A stretch of DNA of 64,000 nucleotides from Kofleriaceae bacterium (GCA_037720695.1 JBBJLY010000001.1:55878-119877), one strand, 5' to 3'; positions 3,241 to 57,068 are shown, numbered from the stretch's first letter. Made by a program: numbers and translations. The notes: generated by a model from the sequence alone, not told the origin.

Positions 3241-3435
3241 ATGGGCCGCTCGCTCGCGCTGATCTGGCTGGTCGCCTGTGGACCCGGCGGGACCAGCAAG
3301 CCCGCCGGCACGACCAACGATCCGGTCGAGGTCTGCGAGCGCGTCGCCGACGTGTGTCGGATCGACAAGGCCAAGCTCGGCGTGTGCACGCAGCGGCGCG
3401 ACGGCTCCGGGTTGTCCTGCGCCTCGCAGCACTAA
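3241..3435 (+). CDS. small Cys-rich lipoprotein (hypothetical)
   Basis: 64-aa ORF with signal/lipobox 'LIWLVAC' and four further Cys. Codons are GC3-rich. No family recognised. Confidence 0.4.
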   Translation: MGRSLALIWLVACGPGGTSKPAGTTNDPVEVCERVADVCRIDKAKLGVCTQRRDGSGLSCASQH

Positions 3436-10244: not shown

Positions 10245-10301
10245 GGTTCACCACGCGAGCGAACACCATCACGGCGAGCGCACGGTTCACTGCTTCGCAG
10301 G

Positions 10302-10940: not shown

Positions 10941-10979
10941 GCCGCCACCGTAGCACTAGGCGCCGGGCGCCGACGCCCG

Positions 10980-11600: not shown

Positions 11601-11653
11601 CCGCGGAGCATAGCCACGGACCCACACGGGCGCAGGCGTTGCCGCGCGCGATC

Positions 11654-12724: not shown

Positions 12725-12728
12725 GTGC

Positions 12729-14693: not shown

Positions 14694-14947
14694 GGCCGCG
14701 CCACTGTGCGCGATCGGTCACGATCTGAACAGCCGGAGATCTGCTGCTCGCGGCACGGACCTCGGCAGGGGATTGGTCCTGGTCGCCGTCGGCGCGTTCG
14801 GACCCGGCGCTTCCCGCGCCGCAGGATTTGGTCTACAAATGCCCGCAAGCGCGCATGGTGCAAGTGCCGGCTGTGTCACGGCGCACGACAAAGATCGGGC
14901 GTGAAGCACTCGGCCGATTTCGCGAGAAGCGTGGTATCTAGGGGGCG

Positions 14948-15787
14948 ATGGGCGCGCTCGATGGCACTGCACTCCTCCTCGTGGACGATGACGAGGACAG
15001 CGTGTTCCTGCTCGCGATCGGGCTGCGCCGCCACGGCGCGCAGGTCGAGACCGCGCTGACCTTCGAGGACGCGCTCGAGTCGCTGACCACCCGTACGCCA
15101 GACGTCCTGGTGTCCGATCTCCAGCTCGGCCCTCGCGACGGCAACGAGCTGATCCGGCTCGCGCGGAACCGGCCCGGCCTCGAGCGGTTGCCCGCGATCG
15201 CCCTCACCGGTCATGGCCGGCAGTCGCACCGCGACGAGGCGTTCGGTGCGGGGTACGCGAAGCTCCTGCTCAAGCCGGCCTCGATCAACGACCTCGTTTC
15301 TGCCGTGCTGGCGCTCGTGCAAGCGCCGAAGCCGGTGCCCGAGACGCCGTCGGATGTCCGCGACCTGCTCGCGCAGCTGAGCGAGGCCTCGCCGTGTCGC
15401 TTCACCTCGCTGCTCCGGTTCGCAAACGACGACACGCTGGCGAGTGTGTGGACCTTCGATCGCGAGAACCCGCAGGTCGACCCGTTTCCTCTCGGGCTGC
15501 CGATCACCGCGTCCTACTGCACGCTCGTGCGCGCGGCGCGCGAGTCGTACACGATCGAGAACGCCGCGACGGATCCGAGAACCACCGCGCATCCCAAGCG
15601 CGACGAGCTCGCGTCGTATGTCGGTGTCCCGGTCTGGGCCTCCGATGGCTCGATGTTCGGCACCCTGTGCACCTTCGATGCGCAGCCGCTGAGGCTCGAC
15701 GAGTCGGTGCGCGACGCGTTCGAACGCGCGTCCCGCACGATCGAGTCCCTGCTGATCACGCTGGCCGACGCGCCGGTCGCGGCCTGA
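14948..15787 (+). CDS. response regulator receiver domain fused to a GAF domain
   Basis: 'LLLVDDDEDS', 'DVLVSDLQL' and 'LLLKP' form a CheY-like receiver. The C-terminal 'SYVGVPVWASDGSMFGTLCTFD' is GAF-like. Confidence 0.8.
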   Translation: MGALDGTALLLVDDDEDSVFLLAIGLRRHGAQVETALTFEDALESLTTRTPDVLVSDLQLGPRDGNELIRLARNRPGLERLPAIALTGHGRQSHRDEAFGAGYAKLLLKPASINDLVSAVLALVQAPKPVPETPSDVRDLLAQLSEASPCRFTSLLRFANDDTLASVWTFDRENPQVDPFPLGLPITASYCTLVRAARESYTIENAATDPRTTAHPKRDELASYVGVPVWASDGSMFGTLCTFDAQPLRLDESVRDAFERASRTIESLLITLADAPVAA

Positions 15788-15858
15788 CCGCACATCGCCA
15801 TCGTCCGCAACGTTTCTTCATCCACCGGGGCAGACGGTAGAAGCTACGGTCGACCGCG

Positions 15859-16642
15859 ATGCTGACGACGGCCACGCTTCACGTCCACGCCTGGCTGCGC
15901 TGGCTGTTGCTCGTGCTCGCACTCGTGGTGCTCGTGCGTGCGGTGCACGGCTGGCGACGTGGGCGGAGCTGGGCGCCGCTCGACGACCGCCTGGCACGCG
16001 TGTTCATCGGGCTCGCCGATCTGCAGATGCTCGCCGGGCTGGTCATGATGCTATGGACCTCGCCGCTGGTCGCGGCCGCCTGGCAGGCCGGGCTGTCGGC
16101 GATGCTCGAGCAACCCGCCCTGCTCGTGTTCGGGCTCGTCCATCCGCTCGGGATGTTCGTCGCGATCGCGGTGATCCACGCCGCGCACGGCCGCGCGGAG
16201 CGGATCGCCGACGTTCGGATCCGCCACCGCACGATCGCGATCGGGGTCGGCGCCTGGTTCGTGATCGTGCTCGCGCTGATCCCGTGGCCATTCGTACCGT
16301 GGGGCCGTCCGCTCGCGCGGATCGGGCTGCCCGGCGCCGGCGCGCCGGCGTCGCCCCGCGCCCCTCGCTCCGCCGCCGACCTTCCTCGCGCGCTGCGCGT
16401 CCTGTCACGGCAGCGGCGGCGGTGGCGATGGCCCCGCGAGTGCCGGGCTCGTCCCGCGCCCGCGCGCGTTCGCCGATCCGGTGTGGCAGCGCGCCACCTC
16501 GGACACGCGGATGCGTTCAGCGATCACCTTCGGCGGTGCGTCGATCGGCCTCGGTGCTGCGATGCCCGCACATGGTGATCTGTCTCGCGCCGAGCTCGAT
16601 GCGCTCGTCGTGTTCATCCGTTCGCTCGGCGAGGCTCCATGA
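15859..16642 (+). pseudogene. membrane protein with a C-terminal c-type cytochrome domain, one frameshift
   Basis: Four or five TM helices lie in the frame of ORF 15859. The haem motif CASCH (16394-16408) and '...AMPAHGDLSRAELDALVVFIRSLGEAP*' lie in another frame that has no start codon upstream of the motif. Junction at about 16320-16375. Confidence 0.55.
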
Positions 16643-16809
16643 CGCTACTACCCACCGCACGCGTTTTGGCTCGAGCGCGAGATCCGGCGCGGCAGGTTTC
16701 CGCGCTGGCACCCTGCTGGCGGGCTGCCACGGGGTCAGAGCGGTCAGCCAACCAACGCGATCTCCCCGTCCCCTCATGTCCTGCCCGCGGATGCGACGCT
16801 TCGTTCGCT

Positions 16810-17235
16810 TCACCGCTTCGCTCGCTTCACCGGCTTCGAGGCCCGCTTCACCGGCTTCGGTCGGTTCGCCGGCTTTGCCCGCTTCGGCTTCGCCGGCTTG
16901 CGCGGCAGCTTCGCGGCGAGCACGAAGGCGAGCGCGATCCAGCGCCGGAGCTCGTCCGGGTCGTCCATCAGGTCGGCCGGCAACATCACCTTCTGGCTCT
17001 TGCGACCGTCGCCCATCGGCTCGAAGTACGCGGCACCGTCGAGCGCGAGGGCCTCGGACCGCTGGGGCTCCGGCAACGCGAGCATCACCGACCGGCCGAA
17101 CAGGCCGGCGAAGACGTGGCCATTGACCTTCGCGGCGACGCCGCCGAACAGCGGCATCGTGGTGACCCTGCGGTCGGCAGGCAACGCCGCGCGAAACAGC
17201 GGGTGGTGCTCGGGCGGAACCTTGATCCAGGGCAT
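16810..17235 (-). CDS. TfoX/Sxy N-terminal-domain family protein with a Lys/Pro-rich tail
   Basis: 'MPLFGGVAAKVNGHVFAGLF...' is a TfoX_N-like pattern. The C-terminal tail is 'KPAKPKRAKPANRPKPVKRASKPVKRAKR'. Confidence 0.65.
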   Translation of the reverse strand: MPWIKVPPEHHPLFRAALPADRRVTTMPLFGGVAAKVNGHVFAGLFGRSVMLALPEPQRSEALALDGAAYFEPMGDGRKSQKVMLPADLMDDPDELRRWIALAFVLAAKLPRKPAKPKRAKPANRPKPVKRASKPVKRAKR

Positions 17236-17257
17236 GGCCCGCGGGATCGTACCCTCC

Positions 17258-18136
17258 CTACACCTTCACGGAGCGCCCGGACCGCGCGGCATCGCCGCGA
17301 TCGAGGAAGGCGCCGGTCGCTCGCGGCCGCTCGGTGCGGCACCACTCGCTCCAGCTCCCGACGTAGAGCGCGGCACCCGGCAGTCCCGCGTGCTCGAGCG
17401 CGAGCAGTGTGTGGCACGCCGTGACGCCGCTGCCACAGTGCACGATCACCTGCGATGGCGGCGTGTCGCCGAGCGCACGGTCGTAGATCTCACGCAGCTC
17501 CTCGACTGACTTGAACCTGTCATCCGGCCCGAGGTTCGCGACGTACGGGATGTTAATCGCACCCGGGATGTGGCCCGCGACCGGATCGAATGGCTCGGTG
17601 TCGCCGCGAAACCGCTCGCCGCTGCGGACGTCGATCACCTTCCAGGCGCGCGACGCACGGCGGATCTCCACCGCATCTGCATCGAGTGTCGGCAACACCC
17701 GCCGTGGTTGGGATACGGCGGCGCCGCGGTCCTGCTGGCGTACTGGTGTGACCGTCGAGCTCGGGCACCGCGGCCAGTCCACCGTCGACTACGCGCACGC
17801 GCGGGTGACCGATCGCGCGCAGCATCCACCACAGCCGCGCCGCAGCGTTGGCGCCGGCGGCGGCATCGTAGATCACGACGTCGCTCGTCTCCGTGATCCC
17901 GAGCGACCCGAGCCAGTGCGTGAACGCGTCCGCGCTCGGCAGCGGATGGCGCCCGCCCTGGGCCGGATCGTGGCCGGGCGCGTGCGCGGTGCTCAGATCG
18001 CGCTCGAGGTCGGCGTGCAGCGCGCCGCGAAGGTGACCCGCATCGAGGCCGCCGCCGGCGGGCGTCGAGCAGCGTCAGCCCCGCGAGACCGGCGCGCAGC
18101 TCGTCGGGCGAGATCAGGGGCGAGATCCGAGGCCAT
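17258..18136 (-). pseudogene. sseA: 3-mercaptopyruvate/thiosulfate sulfurtransferase (tandem rhodanese), about three frameshifts
   Basis: The C-terminal domain has 'VIDVRSGERFRG..GHIPGAINIP' and active site 'HCGSGVTACH..GSWSEW'. The N-terminal domain 'GHLRGALHADLE..GRHPLP..VVIYDAAAGANAAARLWWMLRAIGHPRVRVVDGG' is in a second frame, and 'LISPDELRAGLAGLTLLDAR' is in a third. The ATG at 18136 is in the same frame as the stop. Confidence 0.7.
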
Positions 18137-18171
18137 GGCGCAGGATACGCCACGCTCGTTATAATGGCCGG

Positions 18172-18915
18172 ATGGCCGACCATGAGGTGCCGGAGTGGAA
18201 GCTGCGCGCGGCGGCGATTCCCGGGCTCGTGCTGGTCGCGCTCGCGTTCCACGCGTGGGAGCTCGGCCACTTCATGCAGCGCACCGCGCTCAGCATGCCG
18301 TTGCACGAGGTTGGCCATGCGGCGACCGGGTGGTGGTGCGGGTTCGATGCGATCCCGACGCTGTGGAAGACGCTGATCCCCGAGACCCGCGGCGTGATCA
18401 TGATGCTGGTGATCGCCGCGGGCTGCGGCTGGCTGGTGTATCGCGGGTGGCGCACCCAGCAGCTGTGGCTCGGCGGCGTGGGGCTCGCGCTCGGGGCGCT
18501 GCAGTTCCTCGGGACCACCGCGTCGCTCGAGACCGCGCAGGTCTTGATCACGTTCGGCGGTGACGCCGGCGCGATGGTGCTCGGCACCGTGCTGATGATG
18601 ACGTTCTTCGTCGGGCCGGACTCGCGGCTCCGCCATGGTGGGCTGCGCTGGGGCCTCGCCGGGATCGGGGCGGCAGGTTTCGTCGACACGTTCGCGACCT
18701 GGTGGAGTGCGCGCTCGGACACCGACGTGATCCCGTTTGGCGAGATCGAAGGCGTCGGGCTGTCCGATCCGTCGAAGCTGCAGGAGGTCCACGGCTGGTC
18801 GACCTTGCAGCTGGTCGATCGCTACGTGCTGGTCGGTGTCGTGTGCCTGATCGCGCTGACGACCGTGTACGTGTGGGCCGTGCGCGATGCGCGCCGCAGC
18901 GTGATCACTCGGTGA
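18172..18915 (+). CDS. integral membrane protein with an HExxH motif (putative membrane metalloprotease-like)
   Basis: 247 aa with about six TM segments. 'PLHEVGHAATGW' sits in the first loop. No further family assignment. Confidence 0.5.
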   Translation: MADHEVPEWKLRAAAIPGLVLVALAFHAWELGHFMQRTALSMPLHEVGHAATGWWCGFDAIPTLWKTLIPETRGVIMMLVIAAGCGWLVYRGWRTQQLWLGGVGLALGALQFLGTTASLETAQVLITFGGDAGAMVLGTVLMMTFFVGPDSRLRHGGLRWGLAGIGAAGFVDTFATWWSARSDTDVIPFGEIEGVGLSDPSKLQEVHGWSTLQLVDRYVLVGVVCLIALTTVYVWAVRDARRSVITR

Positions 18916-37530: not shown

Positions 37531-37621
37531 GGCGGAGTCGTAGCATCCCTCGCAGCCGGTAGGGTCGTGGCCTCGTTTGCCCGTGACATTGTCCGGAGTC
37601 TCGGACATTCGGCGTACCGTC

Positions 37622-38673
37622 ATGCCGATGCCGGCAGTCCACCACGTGTTCCTAGTCCCCGGCTTCTTCGGGTTCGTCAACTTCGGGCGCCTCGTGTACT
37701 TCACGCACGTCCGCGAGTTCCTCGAGGATGCCTTCGCCCGCGAGGGGCTCAGCGTCGAGATCCATCGCGTGCGCGTCAAGCCGACCTCGTCGTTGCGCGT
37801 GCGCGCCGCGGAGCTGCTTGCCACGGTGCGCGAGGGTGCACCGGCCGATGCGCCAATCCACCTGTCGGCCACTCGACCGGCGGTCTCGATGCGCGGCTGA
37901 TCGCGACACCCGGCCTCTCGCTCGAGGGGATCGAGGTCGAGCCCGAGGCGCGCCGCATCCGCTCGGTGGTGACCGTCGCCACCCCGCACCGCGGGACCCC
38001 GCTCGCCGAGTTCTTCTCGAGCTTGCTCGGGCAGCAGGTGCTGCGCCTGCTGTCGCTCGTCACCGTCACCGTGCTGCGGCGCGGGCGGCTCCCACTCGGC
38101 GTGATGGCCAAGGTGGCCGCCGCACTCGCGCGGGTCGCGATCCGCCGTCCGAACGCGCCGCTCACGCTGCTCGAGGCGGTCGAGGGCGAGCTCCACAGCC
38201 AGATCGGCGAGCCCGAGCTGATCGACGCATTCCTCCAGGACGTCACGGGGGATCAGGATCTGATGCCGCAGCTGACGCCGGCCGCGATGGATCTGTTCGA
38301 TGCCGCGACCGGCGATCGCCCCGGCGTCGCCTACGCGTCGGTCACCGCCGAGGCGCCGCCGCCGCGACTGCGCACGCGCCTCGCATACGGCCCGCGGCCC
38401 TGGGAGCAGGCGACCTACGCGCTCTACAGCTGGCTCCATCGCCAGGTCGGCCCGGGCGACGGCATGGTCCCGATCGCGTCCCAGCGTCGGGGCACCCTGC
38501 TGTACGAGGCCACGGCGGATCACCTCGACGTGATCGGCCACTTCGACGATCCGGACCACCAGCCACCCCACACGGACTGGATCCACACCGGTTCGAAGTT
38601 CGATCGCAAACAGTTCGAGGCGCTGTGGACCAGCGTCACAAAGTTTGTCGCGACCGCCGCACGACAGCGGTGA
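37622..38673 (+). pseudogene. lipase-like alpha/beta hydrolase (GHSxG), one frameshift
   Basis: 'MPMPAVHHVFLVPGFFGF...APIHL' (frame of ORF 37577) continues at about 37864 as 'VGHSTGGLDARL...VATPHRGTPLA...DGMVP...HLDVIGH' (frame of ORF 37075..38673). 'ctgtc' versus the expected 'ctggtc' fits a 1-nt deletion. Confidence 0.65.
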
Positions 38674-38675: not shown

Positions 38676-40114
38676 CTAGCCGCGCGCACGCAACAGCGAC
38701 TTCTGTACCTTGCCCATCGCGTTGCGTGGCAGCTCGTCAACAAACCGGATCTCGCGTGGCCGCTTGTGCGGCGACAGCAAGCCCGCGACGTGATCCTGCA
38801 AGGCCGCGGACTCGACCGGCGCGCGCGTGACGACGAACGCCACGATGTTCTCACCGAGGTCCGCATCGGGGACGCCGATCACGGCCGCGGCCGCGACGTC
38901 GGGATGCTCGAGCAACGCGGCCTCGATCTCACCCGCGCCGACCTTGTACCCGCCGCACTTGAGGATGTCGGTCGAGCGCCGGCCGACGATCCGGATCTGC
39001 CCCGCCTCGCGCACCGCGAGATCTCCGGTGTAGAACCAGCCATCCGCGTCGAGCACCTCGCGTGTCGCTTCGTCGCGATTCAGGTAGCCGGCGAACACGC
39101 GGGCCACGCACGGCGATCTCGCCCATCGTGGTCGGGTCGCCGTCGATCGGCACGCGCGTCGTCGACCAGGCGGAGCTCGACACCATCGAGTGGCGTCCCG
39201 ACATGACCGGGACGGCGATCGCCATCGTGTCGGGTCGAGCAGTTGATCAGCGTCTCGGTCAGCCCGTAGCGCTCGATCGCGCGCTGGCCGGTCAGCTGCT
39301 CGAGCCAGCGATGCTCGCGCACCGAGAGCGGCGCGGAGCCGCTGACGAGCAGCCTCGCGCTGCGCAGTGCGCCCGCGATCGCGGGGGACCGCTCCGCCGC
39401 CTCGCACAGCCGGTGGATCATCGTCGGCACCGCGAACACCACCGCAGGCGTGTGCTCGCCGACGGCGCGGGCCAGCTCCTCGGGCGAGAACCGCGGCACC
39501 CAGCGCAGCGCGCCCCCGCGACGAAGGCTGCCAAACAGTCCCAGGACCAGGCCGTGGACGTGGAACATCGGCAACGCGTGGACGACCGTGTCGTCGCCGG
39601 TCCACGCCCAGGCGCGTGCGAGGGCGTCGAGGTTGCTCGCGACGTTGCGATCGGTGAGCAGCGCGCCCTTCGGCGCACCGGTCGTGCCCGAGGTGTAGAG
39701 CACGAGGGCGGGCACACCGCGCAGGGTCACGGCGTCCAGTGGCGCGGTCGCGTCGGTGCGCACGATCGCGGGCACCGTCTCGAACCTGCGGTCGACCGCG
39801 TCGAGCGCTGCGGCGACGCACAGCCGGGGCGCGGCATCGCCGAGCACGTGCGCGAGCTCGTGCGTCCCGAGCTTTGGATCGAGGGGCACGGACACGTATC
39901 CGCCAGCGGCCTGCGCGACGAGCGCGACCAGGGTCTCGAGCACCGGCTGGGTCCACACCCCGATCCGATCACCCGGCGCGCAGCCATGCGCCGCGAGCGC
40001 CGCGAGATGGTGGGCGCACGCGGCGGCGAGCTCGCGCTGCGTCAGCGTGCGGGCCTGGACCTGGAGCGCCAGTCGATCAGACGGCGCGGAGAGCGCTGGA
40101 AACAGCGGCTCCAT
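38676..40114 (-). pseudogene. AMP-dependent acyl-CoA synthetase/ligase, two frameshifts
   Basis: 'LYTSGTTGAPKGA', 'YGLTET', 'GEIAVRGP', 'GWFYTGD' and 'GGYKVGAGEIE' motifs. Three frames are used (ORFs 39080..40114, 38929..39225, 38676..39956), with junctions at about 39155 and 39095. Confidence 0.8.
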
Positions 40115-40118
40115 CTCC

Positions 40119-41347
40119 TCACCCGTAGCGAACCTGGACGGTCTCGATCAGCGCGCGCAGCGCACGCTTCACGCCGTCGGTGGTCGGCGCCTTGACGATC
40201 GCCCAGCCTTCACCTTCGTAGCCATCCGCGCGGCCCTGCCCCACTCGGGGGCGGTTCGACCAGCGGTCGCCGCCGCCTCGATCGCGTGCTCGATGCCGGA
40301 CACCGCGACGATCCGCGAGCCGCCGCCCTGGCCGCGAAAGAACGCCGAACCGGCGGCGTGCGTCCGCGGCTTCGGCGTGAACTCGTCGAGCGCCATCAGC
40401 CGCGCCCAGTCGGCGAACAGATCGGTCTCGTGTGCGATGCCCATCAGCGGCATGATCTGCACGCCGGGTGGCCGCACGCCGACCTCGTTGACGAGCGCGC
40501 TGCCATCCTCGCGCAGGAACCACTCCATGTGCGTCAGCGCGGTGCCGGCCGCGGTACCAGCCTGGTCGCCGAACAGCGCCGCGAGCGCTGCGGTGTTGAC
40601 CGGATGGAACGCGGTCCAGGTCGGGTCGTCGACCTCGCGCGGCAACAGCACGCTGTACTGGATCCACGGCGTCTCGAGCACCTCGAGCGGCGACGGGAAG
40701 TAGCGCGTGCCCGATCGCCAGACCGGGACGCCGCGGACGGTGACGGTCTCGCACGTGTGCTCGCGGGCGCGCACGAACTCCTCGACCTGCAGCGGCTGGT
40801 CGGGCGTCGGCGTCGGTACGGCTACGAGGTCGGCGGCCGACTCGACCCGCGACGTCCCGCGGCTGCCGAGCCCGGTCTGCGGCTTGACGATCACCGGATA
40901 GCCCACCTCGTCGATGAACGCGGCGATCTGATCACGGGACCGGGCGAGCGTGCTGCGTGCCACCGGGACGTTTGCCCCGCGCAGGACCTCCTTCATCCGA
41001 TCCTTGTCGCGAAAGTTTCGCGCGATCGCGGTGGTCAGGCCCTCGATGCCGAGCGCATCGCGCGCCGCGGCCATGGGCAGCTGGAGCTGCTCGAGCACGC
41101 CGACCAGGCGATCGACGGGGCCAATCGATCCCGTGATCGCGCGTAGCGCAACGATCAGCTGCTCCGCGGACAGGCAGTCGTCGACCCGGTAGTGCCCGGC
41201 GACGCGGGCGCGCAACCCGGGTGGGATCGCGTGCGAGTGATCGCTGCTGATCAGGCTCAACGTGATGCCATCGAGCCGCGCGAACGCGCGGACGTAGCGG
41301 TTGGTGGTCTCGAGGAAGCGGGGCGCGACGAAGACGACGTGGTTCAT
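40119..41347 (-). pseudogene. ATP-grasp ligase (paralogue B), one frameshift near the C-terminus
   Basis: 'FRDKDRMKE', 'GYPVIVKPQTGLGSRG' and 'MEWFLREDGSALVNEVGVRPPG'. The tail 'GYEGEGWAIVKAPTTDGVKRALRALIETVQVRYG*' lies in the frame of ORF 40119..40754 and parallels the tail of paralogue A. Junction at about 40255-40275. Confidence 0.7.
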
Positions 41348-41349
41348 GG

Positions 41350-42566
41350 TCAGGATGCGTGGAGCTGGATGGTGGTCGCGGCGTCGAAGGCCATCTGCTG
41401 CGCGGCCTCCCAGTCAGGGTGTCGGATCACGATGTAACCGTCGGACAGCAGGGTCGCCTTCCAGTCCCGCCGCGGCGTGCCTGGACGTAGCAGCGTATCC
41501 TCGACGATGAACGGGCGAAAGCGATTGTAGAACTCGGTGAGGCCGACCATCTGGGTGATCCGGCCCTTGCCCTGCGCCCGCGTGAACACGATGGCCACGT
41601 TGTACTTGCGCTCGGTCGAGCCTGCGAACTGCTTGTGGGCCACGGCGCGCGCCCACTCGCGGAACAGGTCGACGTCGTTGGTGTAGTTCATCAGATCGAC
41701 GATCCCTGCGCCGCCCGGGCGACACGCGACCTCGCCGAACACGACCTCGCCGGCCGGCGTGCGGAACCACTCCATGTGGGTCATGCCGTCACCCATGCCG
41801 AGTGCGCGCAGCACGCCACGCCCGAGCTCGACCCCGGCCTTGATGTGGGCTGGTCGAGGTCACGCACCGAGAGCATGATCGGTGAGACCCACTCGTTCGA
41901 CCGCATCTCGAGCGCGCTCGGGATGTACTTCGTCACGCTCTCGAGGGCGGGCACGCCGTCGAGCGCGACCGTGTCGTACGTGTACTCGTCGCCCGCGATG
42001 AACTCCTCGCAGATCGCCTCGGTGATGTGGCGCATGTGCGGCAACACGCGCTCCATGTCGGTCGCCGATTCCACCTTGTAGGTGTCCGCGCTGCCGGCCC
42101 CACTGATCGGCTTGATGATCGCCGGATAGCCGGTGGCCTCGATCGCCTCCCACACATCCTTGATCGAGCGCACGCGCTGGGCCCGTGGCACGCGGAGCCC
42201 CGCCGCGGCGACCCGCTCCTTCATCAGCTGCTTGTCGCGGAACCCGCGCACGGTGTCGACCGACATCCCGGGGATGCCGAACCGCTCGCGCAACCGCGCG
42301 GCGACCATCACCAGCGGCTCCCAGTTCGCGAGCACGTTGTCGATCGAGCGACCGCGCAGCCAGTGCTCGACCCGTGTCATCACGTCGTCCTCGTCAAGCA
42401 GCGACGGGACCTCGAGGTACGCCGACAGGTAGCGCTGGAGCTCCGGATCCGGGCTGCCATCGCCAACCCCGAGCACCTCGACACCGACCTCGGCCAGGCC
42501 GCGCGTGAACTGCCGCATCTCCGGCGGGTACCTCGGCGACAGGAACACGACTCGCATCTCGCGCAC
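41350..42566 (-). pseudogene. ATP-grasp ligase (paralogue A), one frameshift
   Basis: 'FRDKQLMKE', 'GYPAIIKPISGAGSAD' and 'MEWFRTPAGEVVFGEVACRPGG'. ORFs 41781..42566 and 41350..41814 join at about 41847 ('..DLDQP|HIKAGVELG..'), where 'ccc' versus the expected 'cccc' fits a 1-nt deletion. Confidence 0.7.
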
Positions 42567-42584
42567 GGTAACCGACTCTGGCCG

Positions 42585-44785
42585 TCAGCGCGCGTCGATG
42601 GCCATCCCGAGGTGAAGTCTCAGCTCGGCGAGGATCTCCTTGATCTCGACGATCGACTTTCTGGAGCACCGCATCTTCAACAGCTCGGCTTCGCTGCGTT
42701 GCACGAGCTCGCGGATCGTGGTGATCCCAGCCTTCTCGAGCGCGTTCGCAGCGCGCACGGACAGCTCGAGATCGTCGACGTGCCGGGCGAGGTGCTCGTT
42801 CTCCGCCGGGCGCACGACAGGTGGCCGGGCCCCGAGCGCGGGTCGTGGTGCCGGCCCGTCGTAGCGATAGCCGCCGATGATCACCGCCGCGGGCGGCCAC
42901 GTGCACGGATCGACCTCGCCCGCGCGCGCCGCTTCGACGAGCCGACCGATTCGATCTGCGGACTCCGCGACGGCGCCGACCCACGACGTCGTGACATCCG
43001 GCGCGGCGCCGCGCGGAGCGAGCTGCTTCGCCTCGTACTGGCCGGCATCGCTGATCGGGAGGTGCAGCGACACGCGGTCGCCCGCGACCACGCCGAGCTG
43101 CGATGCGGTGTCGCGATCGAGCTCGACGACTGAATCATCGCGCTGCTCGAACGCGACGCCGACCATCGCCGGGCCGCGCGCGCCGACGAGCAGGACCCGC
43201 TCGTGCATCACCATGCGGACCAGCTCGCGCCGGACCGTCGGATTGCCGGCGATCAGCTGCTTCGCGTTTTTGATCGTCGTCGTGTAGCCGAGCGACTCGC
43301 AGAGACCGAACACGAGCGGGCTCGCCAGCCGCGCGAGCAGCTCGACCGGTGCCCGGCATGCCGTCCCGATCACGACCCGCGCGGCCCCCGAATAGTCGGC
43401 GCGCAACGGCCGCGGCGCGAGCGCCTCGCACAACCTGCCGAGCATCAGCTCGACCACGGCATCGACCGCGGCCTGATCCTGCGCCTCGAGCACCCGCGTG
43501 TAGGCCTGGTTCAGCGCATCCTGCGGATCGGGTCGCAGCCCGGCGGGCAGCACCGGCACGATCGCCCACGTCACGCCACCGAACCGGCGCGGTGCGATCG
43601 GCATCGCGAGCCGGATGTGCGCGAACCGCTCGCCACGAACGCGCGCCTGTACCACCTCGACGCCGCACACCTCGCACACCGTCCCGCGGTCCTTCATCCG
43701 GGTGTACTTGCCGCACTCGCAGCGGTAGTCCACGCGCGGCCCAAACAGCTGCGGCGAGAACAGGTCGTTACCGAGCTCGCCGCGCGACCACGCGGGACTG
43801 GGGTCGCGAAGGTCCGCGAGCGCGAGGCAGAGCGCGTGATCGTCCTGCACCAGATCGATCCCGGCCGCGCGTGCGAGGATCGCCAGTCGCGCGACGCGCT
43901 CGAACCCGCGCACCTCGGGCGGCCGGGCCGACGAGACCAGCGCGGTCAGGCCCGGCATCGCGTAGTCGTGCGCGGCGACGACCGGTCGCGCGCGCGGCGG
44001 TGGGTGCACGCGGACCAGCCGTCGGCGATCGGCTCGTGCTTGATCTGTGATTCGACACAGGTCCCCGCGAGTATCGAATCGCCACCCGTCTTGTAGGCCG
44101 CGTGCTCGCTGACGAGCGCGAGCCCGCCAGCTGCGACCAGCCAGGACAGCTGGTCGAGCCGCAGCGGCTCGCCATCGACCGGCTCGTGGGTAACCGGATC
44201 GTACGCGCCCACGCCGCGCGCGTGGAGCTCCTGCGACGCGGTCGGGAAGCCTCGCGTGATCAGACACGCCTGCCCTGCGCGGCTCGCGACGTGAAGCCGC
44301 GGCACAGGATCGCCATCGTCGACGATCTCGTCGACCAGCCCGAGTCGCGCGTCATCCGCGAACAGCGAGTCGCCGACCTCGAGCGGCCCCGACCAGCGCA
44401 CGGTCACGCGGATGCGCTCGCCGATCCCCGCCGGCAGCCCGGTGGTGATGGACTCGACCGCTTCGATCACACCTTCTGGTGCCGACGAGAAGTGAAGCAC
44501 GCCGTGCAGGTGGCGGACCAGCTCTCCGCCCCGCACCACCGTGCGGCCGAGCTCGGGGAGCTGGGACCTCGCCGTCTCGCCGAAGATCGCGAGCAACAGC
44601 TTCTCCTCCGGCGACAGCGCACGCTCCAGGTCCTGGTCGAGCACGTCGAGCTCGTGGATCGAGCGGTGCGTCGCGACGAGCTGATCGGCGAGCGCGCGGT
44701 TGGGCCGTAGCGTGCCCGTCGCGATCGCGTGCAGCCTTGCCTCGAGGGCGACCGCCTCGACCTGTTCGTCGACCCGGATCGGCAT
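42585..44785 (-). CDS. RNAP beta(C-terminal)-like / beta-prime(N-terminal)-like pseudo-polymerase fused to an alpha-subunit C-terminal domain; one frameshift at about 44000-44012
   Basis: '[16 protein letters not shown]' (RpoB flap tip). '[19 protein letters not shown]..' (RpoB C-terminus). '[51 protein letters not shown]' (RpoC zinc ribbon). 'ADYSG', 'TTIKNAK', and a degenerate active site '[14 protein letters not shown]'. '[47 protein letters not shown]' (alpha-CTD). See findings. Confidence 0.6.
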
Positions 44786-46947: not shown

Positions 46948-47002
46948 CGCTCGTCCAGCCCATTGGGTGGTAGGGTCCCGACCGCGTGTCCGCGAGTCGC
47001 CC

Positions 47003-48499
47003 ATGAATGACCAGCTCGATCTCCTGATCGCCGATGGCGTCATCGACGAGGTCCTGGGACGGCTCAAGAGCGGTAAGGAAGCGAACATCTCGCTGGTCCG
47101 GCGCGGCGACGACGTGATCGCCGCGAAGGTCTACAAGGATCGCGCGACCCGCAGCTTCAAGAACAACGCCGGCTACAAGGAAGGCCGCAAGGTCCGCAAC
47201 AGCCGCACCCAGCGCGCGATGGACGGCGGCGGCCAGTTCGGCCGCGACGCTGCCGAGCAGGAGTGGAAGTCCGCCGAGGCCGATGCGATGTACAAGCTGG
47301 TCGGCAGCGGCGTGCGGATCCCCGAGCCGCTGATGTTCTACGAGGGAGTCCTGCTGATGGAGCTCGTGCGCGATGCCGAGGGCCGCCCCGCGCCGCGCCT
47401 GATCGACATCGCGATCGAGCAGGCCGACGCGATCGGCCTCTACGCCGACCTGTTCGCGCAGATCGTTTCGCTGCTCTGCTGCGACCTCATCCACGGCGAT
47501 CTGTCCCCGTACAACATCCTCGCCGCCGCCGACGGGCCGACCATCATCGACTTCCCGCAAGTGGTGTCCGCGGTGCATAGCTCGCGCGCCGAGTTCTACT
47601 TCCTGCGCGACTTCGACAATGTCGTCTCGTTCGTGTCGCGGTTCGATCCCGCGCTCGCGGTGCATCGCCACGATGGGCGCGCCGTGTGGCGCGCCTACGT
47701 CAGCCGCGAGCTGACGCCGAGCTTCGTTCCGCCACCTCCCCCGCCCCCGCGGCCCACGCGCGGCCCGGATCGCCGGGGCCCTCGCGATCGTCGTTCGCCG
47801 CAACGCGGACCGCAGCCGCCGCAGCAGGGCGCGCCACAGCGTGATGGTCAGCCCCGCGGACCGCAACCGCCGCGCGACTTCCCGCCACGCGATGCCCAGC
47901 GCGGGCCGCAACCGCAACGCGGACCGCAACCGCAGCGCGACTTCCAGCCACGCGATGGCCAGCGCGGACCGCAAGGCGCGCCACAACCGCAGCGCGGGCC
48001 GCAACCGCAGCGCGACTTCCAGCCACGTGATGGCCAGCGCGGACCGCAAGGCGCGCCGCAACCGCAACGCGACTTCCAGCCACGCGATGGCCAGCCGCAC
48101 GGGCCGCAGCAGCCGCGCGGCCGCAACCACCACGCGGGCAGCGGCCGCGCGGGCCGCAACCACCACGCGGGCCGCAGCGCCGCGCGGGCCGCAACCACCA
48201 CGAGATCTCCAGCAGCGCGACAGGCAGACGGGTGGCCCGCAGCCGCAACCGCCCCGCGATCAGCCACCGCCACGCGACTTCCAGCAGCGCGGTCCGCAGC
48301 CGCAACGCGATGGCCAGTCGCGTGGTCCCGCAGTCGCCATCGCGCGGACCCCGATCACCCGCTCCGCGCGGAACCGCAGCCGCGGCCGGGTTGGACCGAG
48401 GCTCGACCCGCGAGCAGCCCACCTCCGCCGCTCGTGGCGGCGCCGGCGGCCGAAGCGACACTGGTAACCCGGGCGCTAACAGGACGACGAGATCACTAA
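47003..48499 (+). CDS. RIO-type atypical protein kinase with a Pro/Gln/Arg/Gly-rich repetitive tail (3' end uncertain)
   Basis: 'GKEANISLV', 'AAKVYK', 'LLMELV' and 'LIHGDLSPYNIL..IIDFPQ' form a RIO1-like core. From about aa 256 the tail is low complexity and appears to continue in other frames after about 48120. Confidence 0.7.
   Translation: MNDQLDLLIADGVIDEVLGRLKSGKEANISLVRRGDDVIAAKVYKDRATRSFKNNAGYKEGRKVRNSRTQRAMDGGGQFGRDAAEQEWKSAEADAMYKLVGSGVRIPEPLMFYEGVLLMELVRDAEGRPAPRLIDIAIEQADAIGLYADLFAQIVSLLCCDLIHGDLSPYNILAAADGPTIIDFPQVVSAVHSSRAEFYFLRDFDNVVSFVSRFDPALAVHRHDGRAVWRAYVSRELTPSFVPPPPPPPRPTRGPDRRGPRDRRSPQRGPQPPQQGAPQRDGQPRGPQPPRDFPPRDAQRGPQPQRGPQPQRDFQPRDGQRGPQGAPQPQRGPQPQRDFQPRDGQRGPQGAPQPQRDFQPRDGQPHGPQQPRGRNHHAGSGRAGRNHHAGRSAARAATTTRSPAARQADGWPAAATAPRSATATRLPAARSAAATRWPVAWSRSRHRADPDHPLRAEPQPRPGWTEARPASSPPPPLVAAPAAEATLVTRALTGRRDH
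47858..48121 (+). repeat. 75-nt coding tandem repeat (about 3.5 copies) encoding GPQPQRDFQPRDGQRGPQGAPQPQR
   Basis: Near-identical units at 47921-47995 and 47996-48070, with degenerate or partial copies on both sides. The repeat lies within the RIO-kinase tail. Confidence 0.8.
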
Positions 48500-53185: not shown

Positions 53186-54509
53186 TCAGCGAAAGCTGGT
53201 CGGGTCGAGCTGGTAGCGCTTGAGCCACCGGTAGATCTGCTTCGCGTCCTTGCCATAGAACGCAGCGAGTCGGCTGACGTTGCCGTGCAGCCCGGTGAGC
53301 TGCGTGACGAGCTCGTCGCGACTCGGCATGCCGGGGAGCTGACCCTCGCCGCTCGCGGGTACGGCCTCGTCGGGCGAGGCGATCGGAAGCTCGAGGACTG
53401 CATCGAGATCCGAGCGCCGGACCTCCGTGCGGGCACCGAGCTGGAGTGCGATCAACTGCATCGCCGACTGCAGCTCGCGAATATTGCGTGGCCACGGATG
53501 GGTGACGAGTCGCTCGGCGGCCTGGCCGGAGAGCTGGCGCACGGGACCGGCCGCGGCAAGGAAGCGCTCCGCGAGCATCACGATGTCTCCGCGCCGCGTG
53601 CGCAGCGGCGGCAGCTGAATGACGGCACCGGCGAGCCGCGCGTGAGGTCGCTGCGAAACCGGCCCTCTGCCGTGCGCGCCGCGAGATCGAGGTTGGTCGC
53701 CGCGATCACCCGCGCATCCGTGTGCACGCTGCGGGTGGCGCCGACCGGAATGATCTCGTGGGCGTCGAGTGCGCGCAGCAGCTTGGCCTGATGCGCGAGC
53801 CCGAGCTCGCCGATCTCGTCGAGGAACAGCGTCCCGCCCTGGGCTTCGAGGAACAGGCCCGGGCTGTCACTGGTCGCGCCGGTGAATGCGCCCTTCCGGT
53901 GCCCGAACAGCGTCGCCTCGAACAGATCGTCCGCGAGCGCGGCGCAGTTGACCGCCACGAACGGGCCCCGCCGGCCGCTCTGCCGGTGGACGTACTGTGC
54001 GAGCACGTCCTTGCCGGTCCCCGTCTCGCCGAGCAGCAGCACCGGGATCGCGGATGGGGCCACGCGTGCCGCGAGCGCAGTCGCGGCGACAAATGCCGGC
54101 GCGTTGCCGACCAGCAGCGGATCTCCGGTCTCGCCGGCCGGGCCACCATCTGCGAGCTCGAGCAGCGTGTCACCGACGCGCACGAGGTCCCCGCGCTGCA
54201 GCATGCGCGTCGCGATCCGGTGGCCGTTGACGAACGTGCCATTGCGACTGGCATGATCGTGGATCTCGACGATGACTCCCGCGCGCGTGATGGTCGCGTG
54301 CAGGCGCGACAGCTTTGCGTCATCGATCGCGAGCTCGACGCCGGGGCCGAGCGCCCTGCCGATGCCGAGCCTCGTCGCGAGCTCGACCCGGCGCGACCGC
54401 AGCCCCGCGACCGGCGTGTGGAGGACCAGCAGCGACCACGACTCGGTGGCGCCTGGATCCGGTCCGGAGCCTGCGCTCTGGAGCGTCGTGGCGGAGGGCC
54501 GTCCGGCAA
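53186..54509 (-). pseudogene. FHA-domain sigma-54-dependent transcriptional activator (EBP), two frameshifts
   Basis: FHA domain '[32 protein letters not shown]'. AAA+ domain '[12 protein letters not shown]', 'GAFTGA' and '[11 protein letters not shown]'. Fis HTH 'NVSRLAAFYGKDAKQIYRWLKRY'. Junctions at about 53641-53644 ('DL|YARLAG') and about 54493-54497, next to the TTG start. Confidence 0.8.
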
Positions 54510-54551
54510 GGCCGCACTCTACCAGCGCGGTTCCTGCCCTACACTCCCCAC

Positions 54552-57068
54552 GTGATCGAGGGCGACACGGCGCCGGACAGCGAGCCGGAGGTTCCCGCGA
54601 CCGGGCGCCTCGCGGACGAGCTGCTGCCTGAGACGCTGGTCGACCGCTACCAGATCGAGCACCGGCTCGGCGCCGGCGGGATGGGCATCGTGTACGCGGC
54701 GCGCGATATCCATCTCGGCCGCGCGGTCGCGGTCAAGCTCGTCGGTTCGCGCGTCGACCTCGAGTCCGGCCAGGGCCAGCTCGTGCGCGAGGCGCAGGCG
54801 ATGGCGAAGCTGCGCCACCCGAACCTCGCCACCGTCTACGATCTCCGGGTCACGGCCGACCGGCTGTTCATCGTGATGGAGCTGGTCGACGGCGGCACGC
54901 TCGCCGACTGGGCTGGTGCCGTCGCGCGACCATGGCGCGAGCTGACCGCCATGTATCTGCAGGCTGGGAGAGGCCTCGCGGCGGCGCATGCCGCCAGTTC
55001 GTTCATCGCGACTTCAAGCCGGAGAACGTGCTGGTCGGCAAGGACGGCATCGCGCGGGTCAGCGACTTCGGGGTCGCGGGCATCCTCGGCGCCCAAGGCC
55101 TCGTCGGGACGCCCGGCTACATCGCGCCGGAGGTGCGACGGCACGAGCCCGTCGACGGCCGCGCGGATCAGTACAGCTTCTGCATCGCGCTGAGCGCTGC
55201 GCTATGCGGCAAGCGTCCAGCCGAGTCCGTCGCGCGCCATGTTCGCCCGCGCTGGCTGATGAAGATCATCACGCGCGGGCTGGCGGAGGATCCGCGCGAT
55301 CGCTGGCCGTCGATGGACGTGCTGATCGGAGCGATCGAGCGCAGGCTCGAGCACCGCCGGCGCGCGTGGTTGCTTGCGGCCCTCGCTGTGGTGGTCGTCG
55401 GCGTGACGATCGCGGTGATCGCCGGCACGCGGCGACCGCCGCCGTCGGTGCGGAGCTGGTCGCCGGTCGTGATCGGGCGCGAGCGTCGCGACTCGCCGCT
55501 CGGCATGATCGTGTCGCGAGATGGCTCGACCGTGGCCGGCATCGCCGCGACCGAGGCGTGGACCGAGCCGCGCAGCGTGGTGGATCGCGACGGCGGATCC
55601 GTTCCCGGTCCGCGCCGAGCTCGACGCGTGCCGGCTGTCGCGCACCGGTGCGCGGCTGGTCTGCGGGTTCGGCGGCGAGCTCGAGATCTGGGCGATCGAG
55701 CTCGCCACCCTGCGCGCGTCGCGCCTCGTCACGGGAGCCAGGCTGTTCGACGTCGGACCCGACGACAGCATCCTGTTCGGCTCGGTCGACCTCGCGCGGC
55801 TCCACCGCCGCACGGCCTCGGGCGTCACCGCATCGATCGCGACGGTGCGTGGCCCCGACTTGCTCACCGGCGCCGTGTGGTCGCCCGATGGCACGCGCAT
55901 CGCGTACAAGGTGCGGACCGCGGATGGCGCGCGGATCGAGATCTTGACGCTGGCGACCCACGACACCCGGGTGGTGTCGCGTCGGATCTGCAAAGAGCTC
56001 GAGTGGCTGACCGACACGTCGCTCGTGTGTGCCCCGCGCAGCTTTCGCAAGCCGCTCGTGATCGAGCTTCGCCTCGGTGCGGGAGAGGCGACGGAGCTCG
56101 TCCGCTACGACGGCCCCGAGTACCAGCAGGTCAGCGCGCTGTCCGCATCGGCCGCGGGCGTCTTGCTGTCGACCTCGCCGAACGATCAACACCTCGCGAT
56201 CGTGTCGTCGAGCGGTGAGGTGCAACGGATCGCGTCGGGCGGCGTCACCGATCTGCCGGCCGCAGGCTTCACCGCTTCGGGACAGCTGATCTTCGGGGCC
56301 AGCGAGCAAGGGCATCTCCGGATCAAGTCGCTCGAGGTCGACGGGACCGTCGCGACCGTGCGCACCGGCCCGACCGCGGAGGTCCCGTTCGTCGTCGCCG
56401 GCGAGACGGTGGTGTTCGGACGCTTCCCGGGCGGCGAAGCCACGATCCCGTTCTTCGAGACCCCGGTCGGTAGGCGCTATCCCGACGGCGAGCTGTTCCG
56501 GCTGATGCTCGCATCGGGCAAGGTCGAGCCACTCGGTGCGACGCGCGGATTCAGCTCGCTGTCGTGCGCGACTGCTGTCGGACCTTGCCTGCTCGCGGAG
56601 CGCAGCGGCGCGTACGTGATCGCGCGCGACTGGGATCTCGCGACCGGCGCGCGGGGGCCCGAGCGCGCCCGCTGGCTGGTGACCAGCTTCGCGTCCACCG
56701 TCGCGCTGTCGCCCGATGGCCGCACGCTCGCCCACGTCCAGCGCCTGATGGAGAACCGCGAGCTGTCGCTGCTCGAGCTCGACACCGGGGTCCGTCGCCG
56801 GATCGAGCTGCCGGGGACGGCGCTCGACTTCCCGCGCTGGCTGCCCGACGCGACCCTGGTCGCTGTGCGCACGCGCGGTGGCGAGCGTGGCCTGGTCCGC
56901 GTGCGGGAAGCCGGACCGCCGGAGCTCGTGCTCGCGGTGCCACCGGCTGGCGAATCGCTGACCCTCGCGGGCGAATTCCAGATCGCACCTGACGGTCGCG
57001 CCGCGGTGCTGCTGACCGATTCACTCCAGACCCATGGCTGGGTCGCCCGTGATCAGTTCCAGAATTGA
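54552..57068 (+). pseudogene. Ser/Thr protein kinase with a TM segment and a C-terminal beta-propeller (PD40/WD40-like), two frameshifts
   Basis: '[12 protein letters not shown]', 'VAVK', 'HRDFKPENVL', 'DFG' and 'GTPGYIAPE'. TM segment 'LLAALAVVVVGVTIAVIAG'. Propeller repeats 'WSPDGTRIAY' and 'LSPDGRTLAH'. Junctions at about 54993-54998 and about 55570-55585. Confidence 0.8.

Follow-up and report, generated by a model that had tools for sequence, protein, structure and literature searches.

A polymerase look-alike, predicted to be non-catalytic, packed with paralogous ATP-grasp ligase genes in a Kofleriaceae bacterium

The closest described relatives of the ligases considered here are the L-amino-acid ligases RizA/RhiM, RhiC, BL00235 and BacD/YwfE, which are ~400 aa long. 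Rhizocticin biosynthesis uses two such ligases sequentially, RhiM and RhiC, encoded side by side as paralogues (PMC13579937). A second comparison is offered by RimK/S6 and LysX/LysW, which share with our locus an ATP-grasp gene beside that of a protein resembling a gene-expression component, in principle an acceptor. A third is dapdiamide biosynthesis, where an adenylating amide ligase (DdaG) and an ATP-grasp ligase (DdaF) are a known route to small acyl-peptides; an operon that combines these two kinds of enzyme could assemble an N-acyl-dipeptide. The polymerase look-alike of the locus is best compared with RNA polymerase (RNAP) itself, including its naturally fused beta::beta' forms. In E. 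coli, the flap-tip-helix residues E898/E899/R903/I905 are contact sites of NusA and sigma region 4 (PMC4357713).

We analysed a 64,000-nt stretch of DNA from a Kofleriaceae bacterium (the window), in which positions 38676-44785 hold four minus-strand genes in the order mimic (an RNAP look-alike), grasp1 and grasp2 (two ATP-grasp ligases) and AMP-ligase (an adenylate-forming enzyme) (Table 1). The strand, order, boundaries and gaps of 18, 2 and 4 nt given in an initial annotation of the sequence all hold, as does its description of the packing as operon-like. The mimic stops at TGA 42587-42585 and grasp1 at TGA 41352-41350, which is followed by the grasp2 start at ATG 41347; the grasp2 stop (TGA 40121-40119) in turn precedes ATG 40114 of AMP-ligase. 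Orthologues of grasp1 begin at the equivalent of ATG 42557, which is likely to be the start of the gene, rather than GTG 42566. The unit is bordered upstream by a divergent gene for a small membrane protein (106 aa) from ~44832, and downstream by a convergent hydrolase-like gene that ends at 38673, 2 nt from the last stop. A single strand, short gaps and oppositely oriented flanking genes make up the layout of an operon, and we infer that the four genes are a co-transcribed unit in a Kofleriaceae-like myxobacterium. A scan of this 70% GC DNA for consensus promoters and terminators gave no informative calls: 0 promoters and 1 terminator-like site, against 1.3 expected.

Table 1. Genes, spacers and frame changes of the four-gene unit, in window coordinates.
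Feature	Position	Strand	Remarks
mimic (RNAP look-alike)	42585..44785	-	~733 aa after bridging one frame error (~44002-44004)
grasp1, ATP-grasp ligase, putative L-amino-acid-ligase type	41350..42566	-	402-405 aa after bridging ~41847-41849
grasp2, paralogous ATP-grasp ligase	40119..41347	-	~409 aa after bridging ~40266-40276
AMP-ligase, putative PRK07787 acyl-CoA synthetase type	38676..40114	-	~480 aa after bridging ~39151-39157 and ~39095-39103
mimic-grasp1 spacer	42567..42584	-	18 nt to GTG 42566; 27 nt to ATG 42557
grasp1-grasp2 spacer	41348..41349	-	2 nt (tga cc atg)
grasp2-AMP-ligase spacer	40115..40118	-	4 nt (tga ggag atg)
mimic frame change	~44002-44004	-	C-run
grasp1 frame change	~41847-41849	-	C4 read as C3, with orthologue P0020 as reference
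grasp2 frame change	~40266-40276	-	GGC repeat
AMP-ligase frame changes	~39151-39157, ~39095-39103	-	GC repeats

None of the four genes is an intact open reading frame in the window (lengths of 2201, 1217, 1229 and 1439 nt for mimic, grasp1, grasp2 and AMP-ligase). These breaks went unreported in the initial annotation. There are at least five frame changes in 6.1 kb, with at least one in every gene, a density that would suit a decaying locus, with four pseudogenes in a unit that no longer works in this organism. We give that reading very little credence. Each change is a length error of only 1-2 nt in a short C-run or GC repeat, the four genes have no in-frame stops or large deletions, and GC3 is 0.85-0.95 on either side of each break. 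Moreover, a Ser/Thr kinase gene unrelated to the unit (54291-56218) is broken in the same manner at Pkinase profile position 116/117, and further frame junctions are present across the window. Because GC3 stays high on both sides and the kinase is split likewise, the breaks are most likely assembly indel errors and not signs of pseudogenes.

To judge from its sequence, the mimic is a non-catalytic beta/beta'/alpha-CTD chimera that has lost the catalytic aspartates and kept elements for docking factors and DNA, namely the flap-tip helix, the beta' Zn-ribbon and the alpha-CTD. Its sequence runs colinear with the final part of beta and the initial part of beta' (Cystobacter rpoB ~915-1384 and rpoC 18-484). 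Its recognizable domains are an alpha-CTD (PF03118, 64.9 bits vs a cutoff of 23.8) and the Zn-ribbon region of beta', to which a weak match to beta can be added. The beta segment consists of a flap-tip helix (14 residues) near-identical to that of real beta, a GDKxxGRHGNKG barrel remnant and an HARSxGPYS-like C-terminus. The beta' N-terminal segment has the Zn-ribbon CxCGKY..RMK.RG..C..CGVEV, a DYSG switch-2-like segment, GYTTTIKxAK and a degraded NADFDGD. The Zn-ribbon cysteines C356, C358, C371 and C374 are invariant across the mimic family, and a model of the mimic finds beta' chains as its best matches (E ~1e-14). A family-specific linker, DPCxWPxAAxxxGGY, leads into the alpha-CTD, which retains the R/N...G-K-S DNA-contact residues and, unlike that of RNAP, is fused in cis.

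The departures from RNAP are equally clear. The mimic has ~730 aa whereas beta and beta' together exceed 2,700 aa; its clamp coiled-coil is truncated, and it has no beta lobes, bridge helix or trigger loop. In place of NADFDGD, the mimic of the window has VVAGD and the family as a whole xxxGD/GE, and the lysines of the beta GDKxxGRHGNKG motif are also lost. The earlier description of the look-alike as non-catalytic stands. Scores fall far under every rpoA/B/C equivalog cutoff: 82 bits vs 963.5 for rpoC (TIGR02386), 16.9 bits vs 896 for rpoB (NF001616), where the flap-tip, barrel-remnant and C-terminal segments alone align, and 78.6 bits vs 302 for the best rpoA model, which matches only the CTD, the alpha N-terminal dimerisation domain being absent. 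Against the PADLOC anti-phage defence models, the mimic gives a single hit, weak and alpha-CTD-like, to PglW (19.6 bits); neither the ligases nor the synthetase give any.

The two ATP-grasp proteins had been described as mutual paralogues of L-amino-acid-ligase or RimK type. Their paralogy is borne out by 30-32% identity over ~350 aa (E ~1e-43) and by the quoted motifs FRDK..MKE, GYPxIxKPxxGxGS and (H)MEWF in both. As for the type, the former alternative is upheld and the latter is not. The best structure matches of grasp1 are RizA (4wd3, E=3.9e-21), BL00235 (3vot, 1e-11) and BacD (3wo1, 4e-8), with an alignment to RizA that runs across the H-x-E...GE-x-A-x-R-x-GG catalytic region, whereas the RimK structure 3vpd reaches only E=3.5e-4. 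Matches of grasp2 are weaker (4wd3 2.5e-7, Ddl 3e-8), and the catalytic signature of these free-amino-acid ligases, E...E-x-(A/G)-x-R-x-G, is present in both proteins. Neither passes the RimK family model TIGR00768 (28.4 bits for grasp1 and 32 bits for grasp2, cutoff 143.4) or the LysX model (26-30 bits vs 276). They also stay far under the BacD equivalog (39-40 bits vs 850) and DdaF (19 bits vs 840) cutoffs. These comparisons point to grasp1 and grasp2 as L-amino-acid-ligase-type ATP-grasp enzymes, resembling RizA rather than RimK. Two differences from the described ligases are that no phosphonate or other biosynthetic genes lie beside grasp1/grasp2 and that the pair is 75-85% identical across many Myxococcota MAGs, in the manner of housekeeping genes.

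Two other assignments for the ligases were considered and rejected. A graspetide (microviridin-type) system would involve a small precursor-peptide gene, and none lies in or beside the ligase genes, where the gaps of 2-27 nt are too small to hold one, or at the ligase pairs of loci L167-L169. A RimK-type protein-modifying ATP-grasp was dropped on the TIGR00768 result and on the adjacent mimic, which is without the conserved C-terminal Glu of S6 and LysW or an acidic tail.

The last gene was correctly recognized as adenylate-forming: its product has AMP-binding and AMP-binding_C domains. Its match to the PRK07787 subfamily model is full-length (13-469 of 471 positions) and scores 574.7 bits, which is 0.3 bit short of the curated cutoff of 575 for a protein pieced together over two frame errors; the next best model, malonyl-CoA synthase (MatB-like) PRK07514, is not passed (369.4 bits, cutoff 558). 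A probable acyl-CoA synthetase type sets AMP-ligase apart from dapdiamide DdaG, as does a gene combination that is not conserved. The AMP-ligase and the two ligases might still build an RNAP-targeting acyl-peptide, with the mimic as a self-protecting target decoy, comparable to the duplicated resistant targets in biosynthetic gene clusters. Myxobacteria produce several RNAP inhibitors, the dapdiamide route would be a precedent, the DdaF model does match weakly, and the mimic has retained the DYSG segment and the beta C-terminal elements. We nonetheless consider such an antibiotic locus very unlikely, as ligases so well conserved over many MAGs, and present without AMP-ligase or mimic, are unlike biosynthetic clusters, the four-gene unit contains no transporter, tailoring or regulatory genes, and AMP-ligase probably falls in a generic acyl-CoA synthetase subfamily.

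The distribution of the genes bears on how they belong together. There are >3,500 matches to grasp1, the best 120 of which (75-85% identical, 402 aa) come from Myxococcales/Kofleriaceae MAGs. Orthologues of grasp2 (71-74% identical) lie directly downstream of grasp1 in L167-L169, and L167/L168, L169 and a JGI contig have grasp1 followed by grasp2 but neither mimic nor AMP-ligase, among otherwise unrelated neighbours; the flanks of the pair differ in every sampled locus. The ligase pair is an autonomous module, far commoner than the mimic (at least an order of magnitude more widespread). No AMP-ligase was seen beside ATP-grasp genes in the other sampled loci, the only AMP-binding gene nearby (L166) being 36% identical and 4.4 kb off, and the acyl-CoA synthetase link is apparently unique to this genome among them.

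The mimic is rare and adjoins the ligase pair in only 2 of ~10 contexts, namely the window and locus L001; ~8 of the ~10 are without an ATP-grasp neighbour, although two were sampled only in part and several are short contigs (the L003 contig breaks off 179 nt upstream of its mimic). In L001, a distant mimic orthologue (45% identical) again stands beside the two ligases, each represented by an orthologue (62% and 40%), in the order grasp1, 2 nt, mimic, with grasp2 divergent, which differs from the order in the window; the two loci have no other neighbours in common. In none of 100 bootstraps did the two grasp-linked mimics come out as sisters, and the clade that unites them extends over the core mimic family. 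Of the four-gene arrangement in the initial annotation, grasp1-grasp2 is therefore conserved, the mimic link recurs once and the AMP-ligase link recurs in no sampled locus. The annotation had let its proposal fall if orthologues of the mimic were never linked to ATP-grasp or AMP-ligase genes, and L001 supplies such a link.

One reading of these data is that the mimic and the synthetase are transcribed along with a conserved housekeeping pair of ATP-grasp genes merely because they adjoin it, the three modules being functionally unrelated. It would explain why the pair is autonomous with flanks that vary from locus to locus, why the majority of mimic homologues have unrelated neighbours, why the AMP-ligase link is confined to this genome and why the wider mimic family contains no fusions with ATP-grasp or adenylating domains. 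It sits less well with mimic-grasp1 adjacency (2-27 nt) in two non-sister lineages that differ in gene order and share no other neighbours: chance adjacency of two specific single-copy families would be unlikely to arise twice, and it seems unlikely too that the link was kept passively while at least two rearrangements took place and protein identity fell to 45%. We regard an incidental neighbourhood as rather unlikely, while according it some weight. A facultative functional link between mimic and ligase pair is plausible, given two non-sister lineages that differ in gene order and yet both have the mimic tightly spaced to grasp1.

The account that we favour, though tentatively and at somewhat less than an even chance for the whole, combines a ligase-pair core, a local synthetase and a facultative regulator or decoy in one co-transcribed unit. 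The conserved core would be the autonomous pair of L-amino-acid-ligase-type enzymes, which most likely join carboxylates to amines on small substrates in two successive ATP-dependent steps; the product may be a di- or tripeptide-like metabolite, as for RhiM/RhiC. The PRK07787-type synthetase would be a lineage-specific addition that either supplies an activated acid for this product or has no more than its expression in common with the pair. The mimic, as a facultative accessory partner of grasp1, would most likely bind transcription factors or DNA, as a decoy or regulator made in coupled synthesis with the ligases, and would probably not be their obligatory substrate. Two observations weigh against this account, besides the peptidases named below. 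First, linked loci number only two, set against the mimic contexts without an ATP-grasp neighbour. Second, the identity of the best-matching MAG orthologues of the ligase would be unusual for a secondary-metabolite pathway; such conservation hints at a housekeeping role.

The initial annotation also suggested that the ligases modify the mimic as RimK does S6. This is the weaker reading because the ligases resemble RizA and not RimK and the mimic has no conserved acidic C-terminus (family members end in AIDAR, MKL, QTPSA, MRLG, MKV, MRI or MRL). In contrast to RimK/S6, genomes with the ligases far outnumber those with the presumed acceptor, and since the pair is so widespread and occurs without the mimic, modifying it cannot be the main purpose of the pair. 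In a broader form, one or both ligases would add amino acids to the mimic or to RNAP, and M14/AstE-type carboxypeptidases would remove them in other lineages, in parallel with RimK/S6 or with TTLL/CCP on tubulin. Tight coupling to grasp1 in two lineages agrees with such tagging, and so do several neighbours of the mimic: L164 has an M14 zinc carboxypeptidase 14 nt downstream, and L003 an orthologue of it at 75% identity; L001 has, just past the mimic, an AstE/AspA-type hydrolase, a GCS2 ligase and a third ATP-grasp-like gene; and the P0006 contig has a divergent CN-hydrolase. This neighbour theme was, however, set post hoc and is missing from L004, L171, L165 and L084, and with the breadth of the ligase pair, its grouping with free-amino-acid ligases and the variable C-termini, it leaves tagging distinctly unlikely. 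The specific proposal that the ligases write and the carboxypeptidases erase amino-acid tags on the mimic, or on RNAP with the mimic as a competing substrate, strikes us as more improbable still; if true, the transcription apparatus of bacteria would be subject to a modification system resembling the tubulin code. The M14/AstE-type peptidases beside the mimic in other lineages do suit protein tagging better than they suit the regulator that we favour.

All four co-directional coding regions that the initial annotation had placed on the minus strand were recovered at 38676-44785 with the same boundaries and gaps: an RNAP look-alike (the mimic, a chimera of beta, beta' and alpha-CTD), two ATP-grasp ligases (grasp1 and grasp2) and an adenylate-forming enzyme (AMP-ligase). 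Orthologues of grasp1 start at the position matching the second of the two candidate start codons in the table, the ATG. Upstream, the unit is bordered by a divergent gene for a 106-aa membrane protein; downstream, only 2 nt separate its last stop codon from the end of a convergent hydrolase-like gene. Genes farther out are unrelated, and include a CMAS methyltransferase, a SpoIID-like protein, a response regulator and a RIO kinase, the last with a long Pro/Gln/Arg-rich C-terminal tail of repeated PQPQRDFQPRDGQRGPQGA-like units. GC content is about 70% across the whole window, and a scan for consensus promoters and terminators was uninformative.

Features of the four-gene unit, its surroundings and the compared loci (window positions unless a locus is named)
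Feature	Position	Strand	Detail
Mimic	42585-44785	minus	spans 2201 nt
Mimic flap-tip segment	44624-44581	minus	residues 54-68
Mimic break	~44002-44004	minus	within ACCCAC
Mimic family motif	42700-42830	minus	residues ~620-650
Mimic stop TGA	42587-42585	minus	18 nt to grasp1 GTG 42566; 27 nt to ATG 42557
grasp1	41350-42566	minus	spans 1217 nt
grasp1 break	~41847-41849	minus	one C missing from C4 run
grasp1 TGA	41352-41350	minus	2 nt, then grasp2 ATG 41347
grasp2	40119-41347	minus	spans 1229 nt
grasp2 break	~40266-40276	minus	within GGC repeat
grasp2 TGA	40121-40119	minus	'ggag', then AMP-ligase ATG 40114
AMP-ligase	38676-40114	minus	spans 1439 nt
AMP-ligase shifts (two)	~39151-39157; 39095-39103	minus	GC-dinucleotide runs
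Hydrolase-like gene	37577-38673	+	convergent with operon; frame shifts near 37852
RIO-domain kinase	46967-48499	+	PF01163, 107.8 bits
Ser/Thr kinase	54291-56218	+	broken at Pkinase profile position 116/117
L001, second amide-bond cluster	12298-18589	minus	convergent with L001 mimic
L003, M14 orthologue	10939-11688
L164, M14 carboxypeptidase	2542-3006
L165, two-gene mimic	1088-3243
L051 (Cystobacter fuscus), rpoC	9881-14166		ORFs 9881-12796, 12628-14166

None of the four genes has an intact ORF, each being spread over two or three frames. Break positions were set by comparison with intact orthologues and all lie in short repeats; in grasp1, for example, the window reads CAGCCC/ACATC where the protein match P0020 (82% identical) requires CCC-CAC. 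GC3 stays at 0.85-0.95 on either side of each break, the Ser/Thr kinase gene is likewise split into two overlapping ORFs in different frames, and further same-strand frame junctions are scattered over the window. On these grounds, the five frame changes are read as assembly indel errors rather than gene decay. Pseudogenes were dropped as an explanation, and we give them next to no credence, because every indel sits in a homopolymer or short repeat, GC3 is undisturbed and a kinase gene with no relation to the unit is broken in the same manner. The operon proteins analysed are sequences stitched over the breaks, and in so indel-prone an assembly gene calls in the window call for frame-aware handling. 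The genuine rpoC of Cystobacter fuscus contig JBMEQP010000002.1 is also recorded as a pair of ORFs that overlap but differ in frame, which suggests a frame error there too.

The two ATP-grasp proteins are paralogues, as annotated, with a mutual identity of 30-32%. Their proposed likeness to L-amino-acid ligases was borne out: the closest solved relatives of grasp1 are RizA (E=3.9e-21), BL00235 and BacD, and its H-x-E...GE-x-A-x-R-x-GG catalytic region aligns with these ligases, with grasp2 further from the solved enzymes. A RimK-type assignment did not survive, the RimK and LysX models scoring well under their cutoffs for both proteins. The pair is predicted to act in the manner of the sequential L-amino-acid ligases RhiM and RhiC (PMC13579937); since neither protein passes any curated equivalog model, both are predicted to be new members of that kind. 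Matches to grasp1 exceed 3,500, and the best 120 are 75-85% identical proteins of 389-452 aa from Myxococcales/Kofleriaceae MAGs. Such very high conservation of the ligase pair suggests an unrecognised core metabolite behind it, and an uncharacterised, highly conserved L-amino-acid-ligase-like pair common in Kofleriaceae-like Myxococcota is of interest independently of any link to the mimic. The last gene is adenylate-forming, as had been proposed, and its product aligns over the whole length with the PRK07787 acyl-CoA synthetase subfamily. Its putative membership is borderline, the stitched sequence scoring 574.7 bits against a cutoff of 575 (0.3 bit under); the malonyl-CoA synthase model gives just 369 of 558.

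Synteny of the four genes is upheld for the ligases, in part for the mimic and nowhere else sampled for the AMP-ligase. At L167/L168, L169 and one JGI contig, grasp1 is followed 14-24 nt on by grasp2 (71-74% identical), the pair standing without mimic or AMP-ligase among otherwise unrelated genes, and L166 and L170 carry grasp1 without its partner. The sole AMP-binding gene near the sampled ligase loci is that of L166, which lies 4.4 kb off and has 36% identity. It is the ATP-grasp pair that forms the conserved functional unit; the pair needs neither the mimic nor the AMP-ligase, and the AMP-ligase is a local addition. Linkage of mimic and ligases occurs in 2 of about 10 mimic contexts sampled. 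In the second of these, L001, a divergent grasp2 (40% identical) and grasp1 (62%) precede the mimic (45%), which follows after 2 nt; a near-identical copy of this arrangement lies on a contig from a second sample. At L003 the contig edge lies 179 nt upstream of the mimic and the downstream genes are unrelated, and no ATP-grasp neighbour of the mimic was found at L004 (a Myxococcales MAG), L084, L164, L165, the contigs of protein matches P0002 and P0006 or the distant L171. In a tree of 16 family members built by a fast distance method, the two linked mimics are sister in 0 of 100 bootstraps and the smallest clade uniting them is the entire core family. That the modules share no functional link at all is an unlikely account, if one to be taken seriously; it would leave the recurrent adjacency of mimic and grasp1 to chance or inertia, to which it is hard to ascribe. 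Adjacency in a second, non-sister lineage, in another gene order, with no other shared neighbours and with tight spacing both times, is instead evidence for a facultative functional link.

At about 733 aa, the mimic runs colinear with the last part of beta and the first part of beta' of a genuine myxobacterial RNAP (Cystobacter rpoB ~915-1384, rpoC 18-484); large internal stretches are deleted, and an alpha-CTD closes the protein. It derives from rpoB, rpoC and rpoA but falls outside all three on their membership tests, the catalytic motif included. The NADFDGD aspartates are gone (VVAGD in the window, xxxGD/GE family-wide), as are the lysines of beta GDKxxGRHGNKG and most of the clamp coiled-coil. 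Retained are all four Zn-ribbon cysteines, a DYSG switch-2-like segment, GYTTTIKxAK and, nearly unaltered, the beta flap-tip helix, whose family consensus is the same as in real beta. The R...N and G-K-S DNA-contact positions of the alpha-CTD are presumably kept, as read from alignment against E. coli alpha. A family motif, AARAxxVDPCxWPxAAxxxGGYxY, separates the beta'-like part from the alpha-CTD; its D, C, W, AA and GGY are invariant, and no counterpart of it was found in real beta'. An AlphaFold model of P0002, an intact homologue, is of moderate confidence (pLDDT 67.5, pTM 0.39) and matches beta' chains best (E about 1e-14). In the E. coli flap tip, E899 and R903 bind NusA-NTD, R903 being required, and I905 is implicated in sigma region 4 binding (PMC4357713). 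The R903 position is Arg in the family consensus and in real beta, Leu in the window copy, Ser in P0004 and His at L004, substitutions from which NusA-type binding may vary among members.

There are several possible explanations for this pairing. Where a lineage-specific nucleic-acid- or factor-binding protein lies beside conserved enzyme genes, the commonest reason is regulation or coupled expression, and the mimic keeps factor- and DNA-docking parts without catalysis. For these reasons we tentatively favor an explanation in which grasp1 and grasp2 would form an L-amino-acid-ligase-type, amide-forming module acting in two steps, the acyl-CoA synthetase would have been recruited locally, and the mimic would be an RNAP-derived decoy or regulator and a facultative partner. 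An acyl-peptide targeting RNAP, with the mimic as decoy, is a very improbable rival. The initial annotation had suggested that the ligases modify the mimic or that the mimic regulates or escorts a small-molecule pathway; this stands in part, the arrangement being confirmed with the caveat of frame errors, and modification of the mimic cannot be the primary purpose of ligases that are independent of it. That the mimic or RNAP itself carries protein tags is improbable given the ligase type, the differing distributions of ligases and mimic and the non-acidic mimic C-termini, although two neighborhoods speak for it. At L164, the gene 14 nt 3' of the mimic encodes an M14 zinc carboxypeptidase, and at L001 the mimic is adjoined by genes for an AstE/AspA-type hydrolase, a GCS2 carboxylate-amine ligase with CBS domains and a 404-aa weakly ATP-grasp-like protein. 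The L001 cluster also codes for a Uma2 nuclease, an esterase and an HhH protein, and no gene of this cluster has a counterpart in the window. The M14 orthologue at L003 (75% identical) is 8.5 kb from the mimic, with unannotated ORFs, WHD and AAA genes, an MS channel, LysR and others between, which looks like an insertion between once-adjacent genes. No M14 orthologue was found in the window, L001, L004 or L171, and the peptidase was dropped as a universal partner. The four-gene unit combines known kinds in a new way and is a candidate system, an unusual pairing whose joint action is evidenced by one genome and one partial recurrence; no precedent for linking an RNAP look-alike to amide-bond-forming enzymes was found in the literature, and PADLOC gave no defence-system match. 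If the link is real, an undescribed non-catalytic RNAP-derived class would be tied to such enzymes, via regulation or covalent tagging; the look-alike itself is a beta/beta'/alpha-CTD chimera in which flap-tip helix, Zn-ribbon and DNA-binding alpha-CTD are preserved.

Independently of any ligase link, the mimics form an inactivated mini-RNAP family of several dozen 50%-identity clusters, fused and split, of which no description was found in the literature. A word-indexed search of 5.8 billion proteins gave seven close homologues (44-50% identical; five full-length at 709-758 aa, P0003 at 89% coverage and P0008 a beta'-half product) and two distant ones. An exhaustive search of representatives placed about 80 clusters above the true-RpoC background, with beta fragment, beta' fragment and alpha-CTD as their architecture. 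Longer members add a second alpha-CTD or a Sel1 repeat to RNAP-derived domains and no others, and a Rosetta-stone test found no fusion to a ligase domain in the representative clusters. No members were found among viral contigs, annotated phages or plasmids. Among the matches listed, L004 was the sole real relative in species-representative genomes, where absence carries little weight, the patterns used (RMKxRGxxC and VDELELSVR) also hitting true rpoC and rpoA. L084 was the sole relative among the matches listed in a metagenome scan with a 'mimic-specific' sub-alignment, whose region proved beta'-like too (GYTTTIKxAK; HVPLTLEAQ in the comparison). At L165 the mimic is two genes, a 267-aa beta-like ORF and, with a 4-nt overlap, a 451-aa ORF whose start coincides with the beta' N-terminus (MNDIFSFFEKP), a layout mirroring rpoB-rpoC. 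Many representative matches likewise span just profile positions 1-260 or just 274-726 (P0137, P0138, P0172, P0181, P0184, P0188, P0197). Together with the L165 form, they suggest that the family descended from an rpoB-rpoC duplicate and exists in both split and fused forms.
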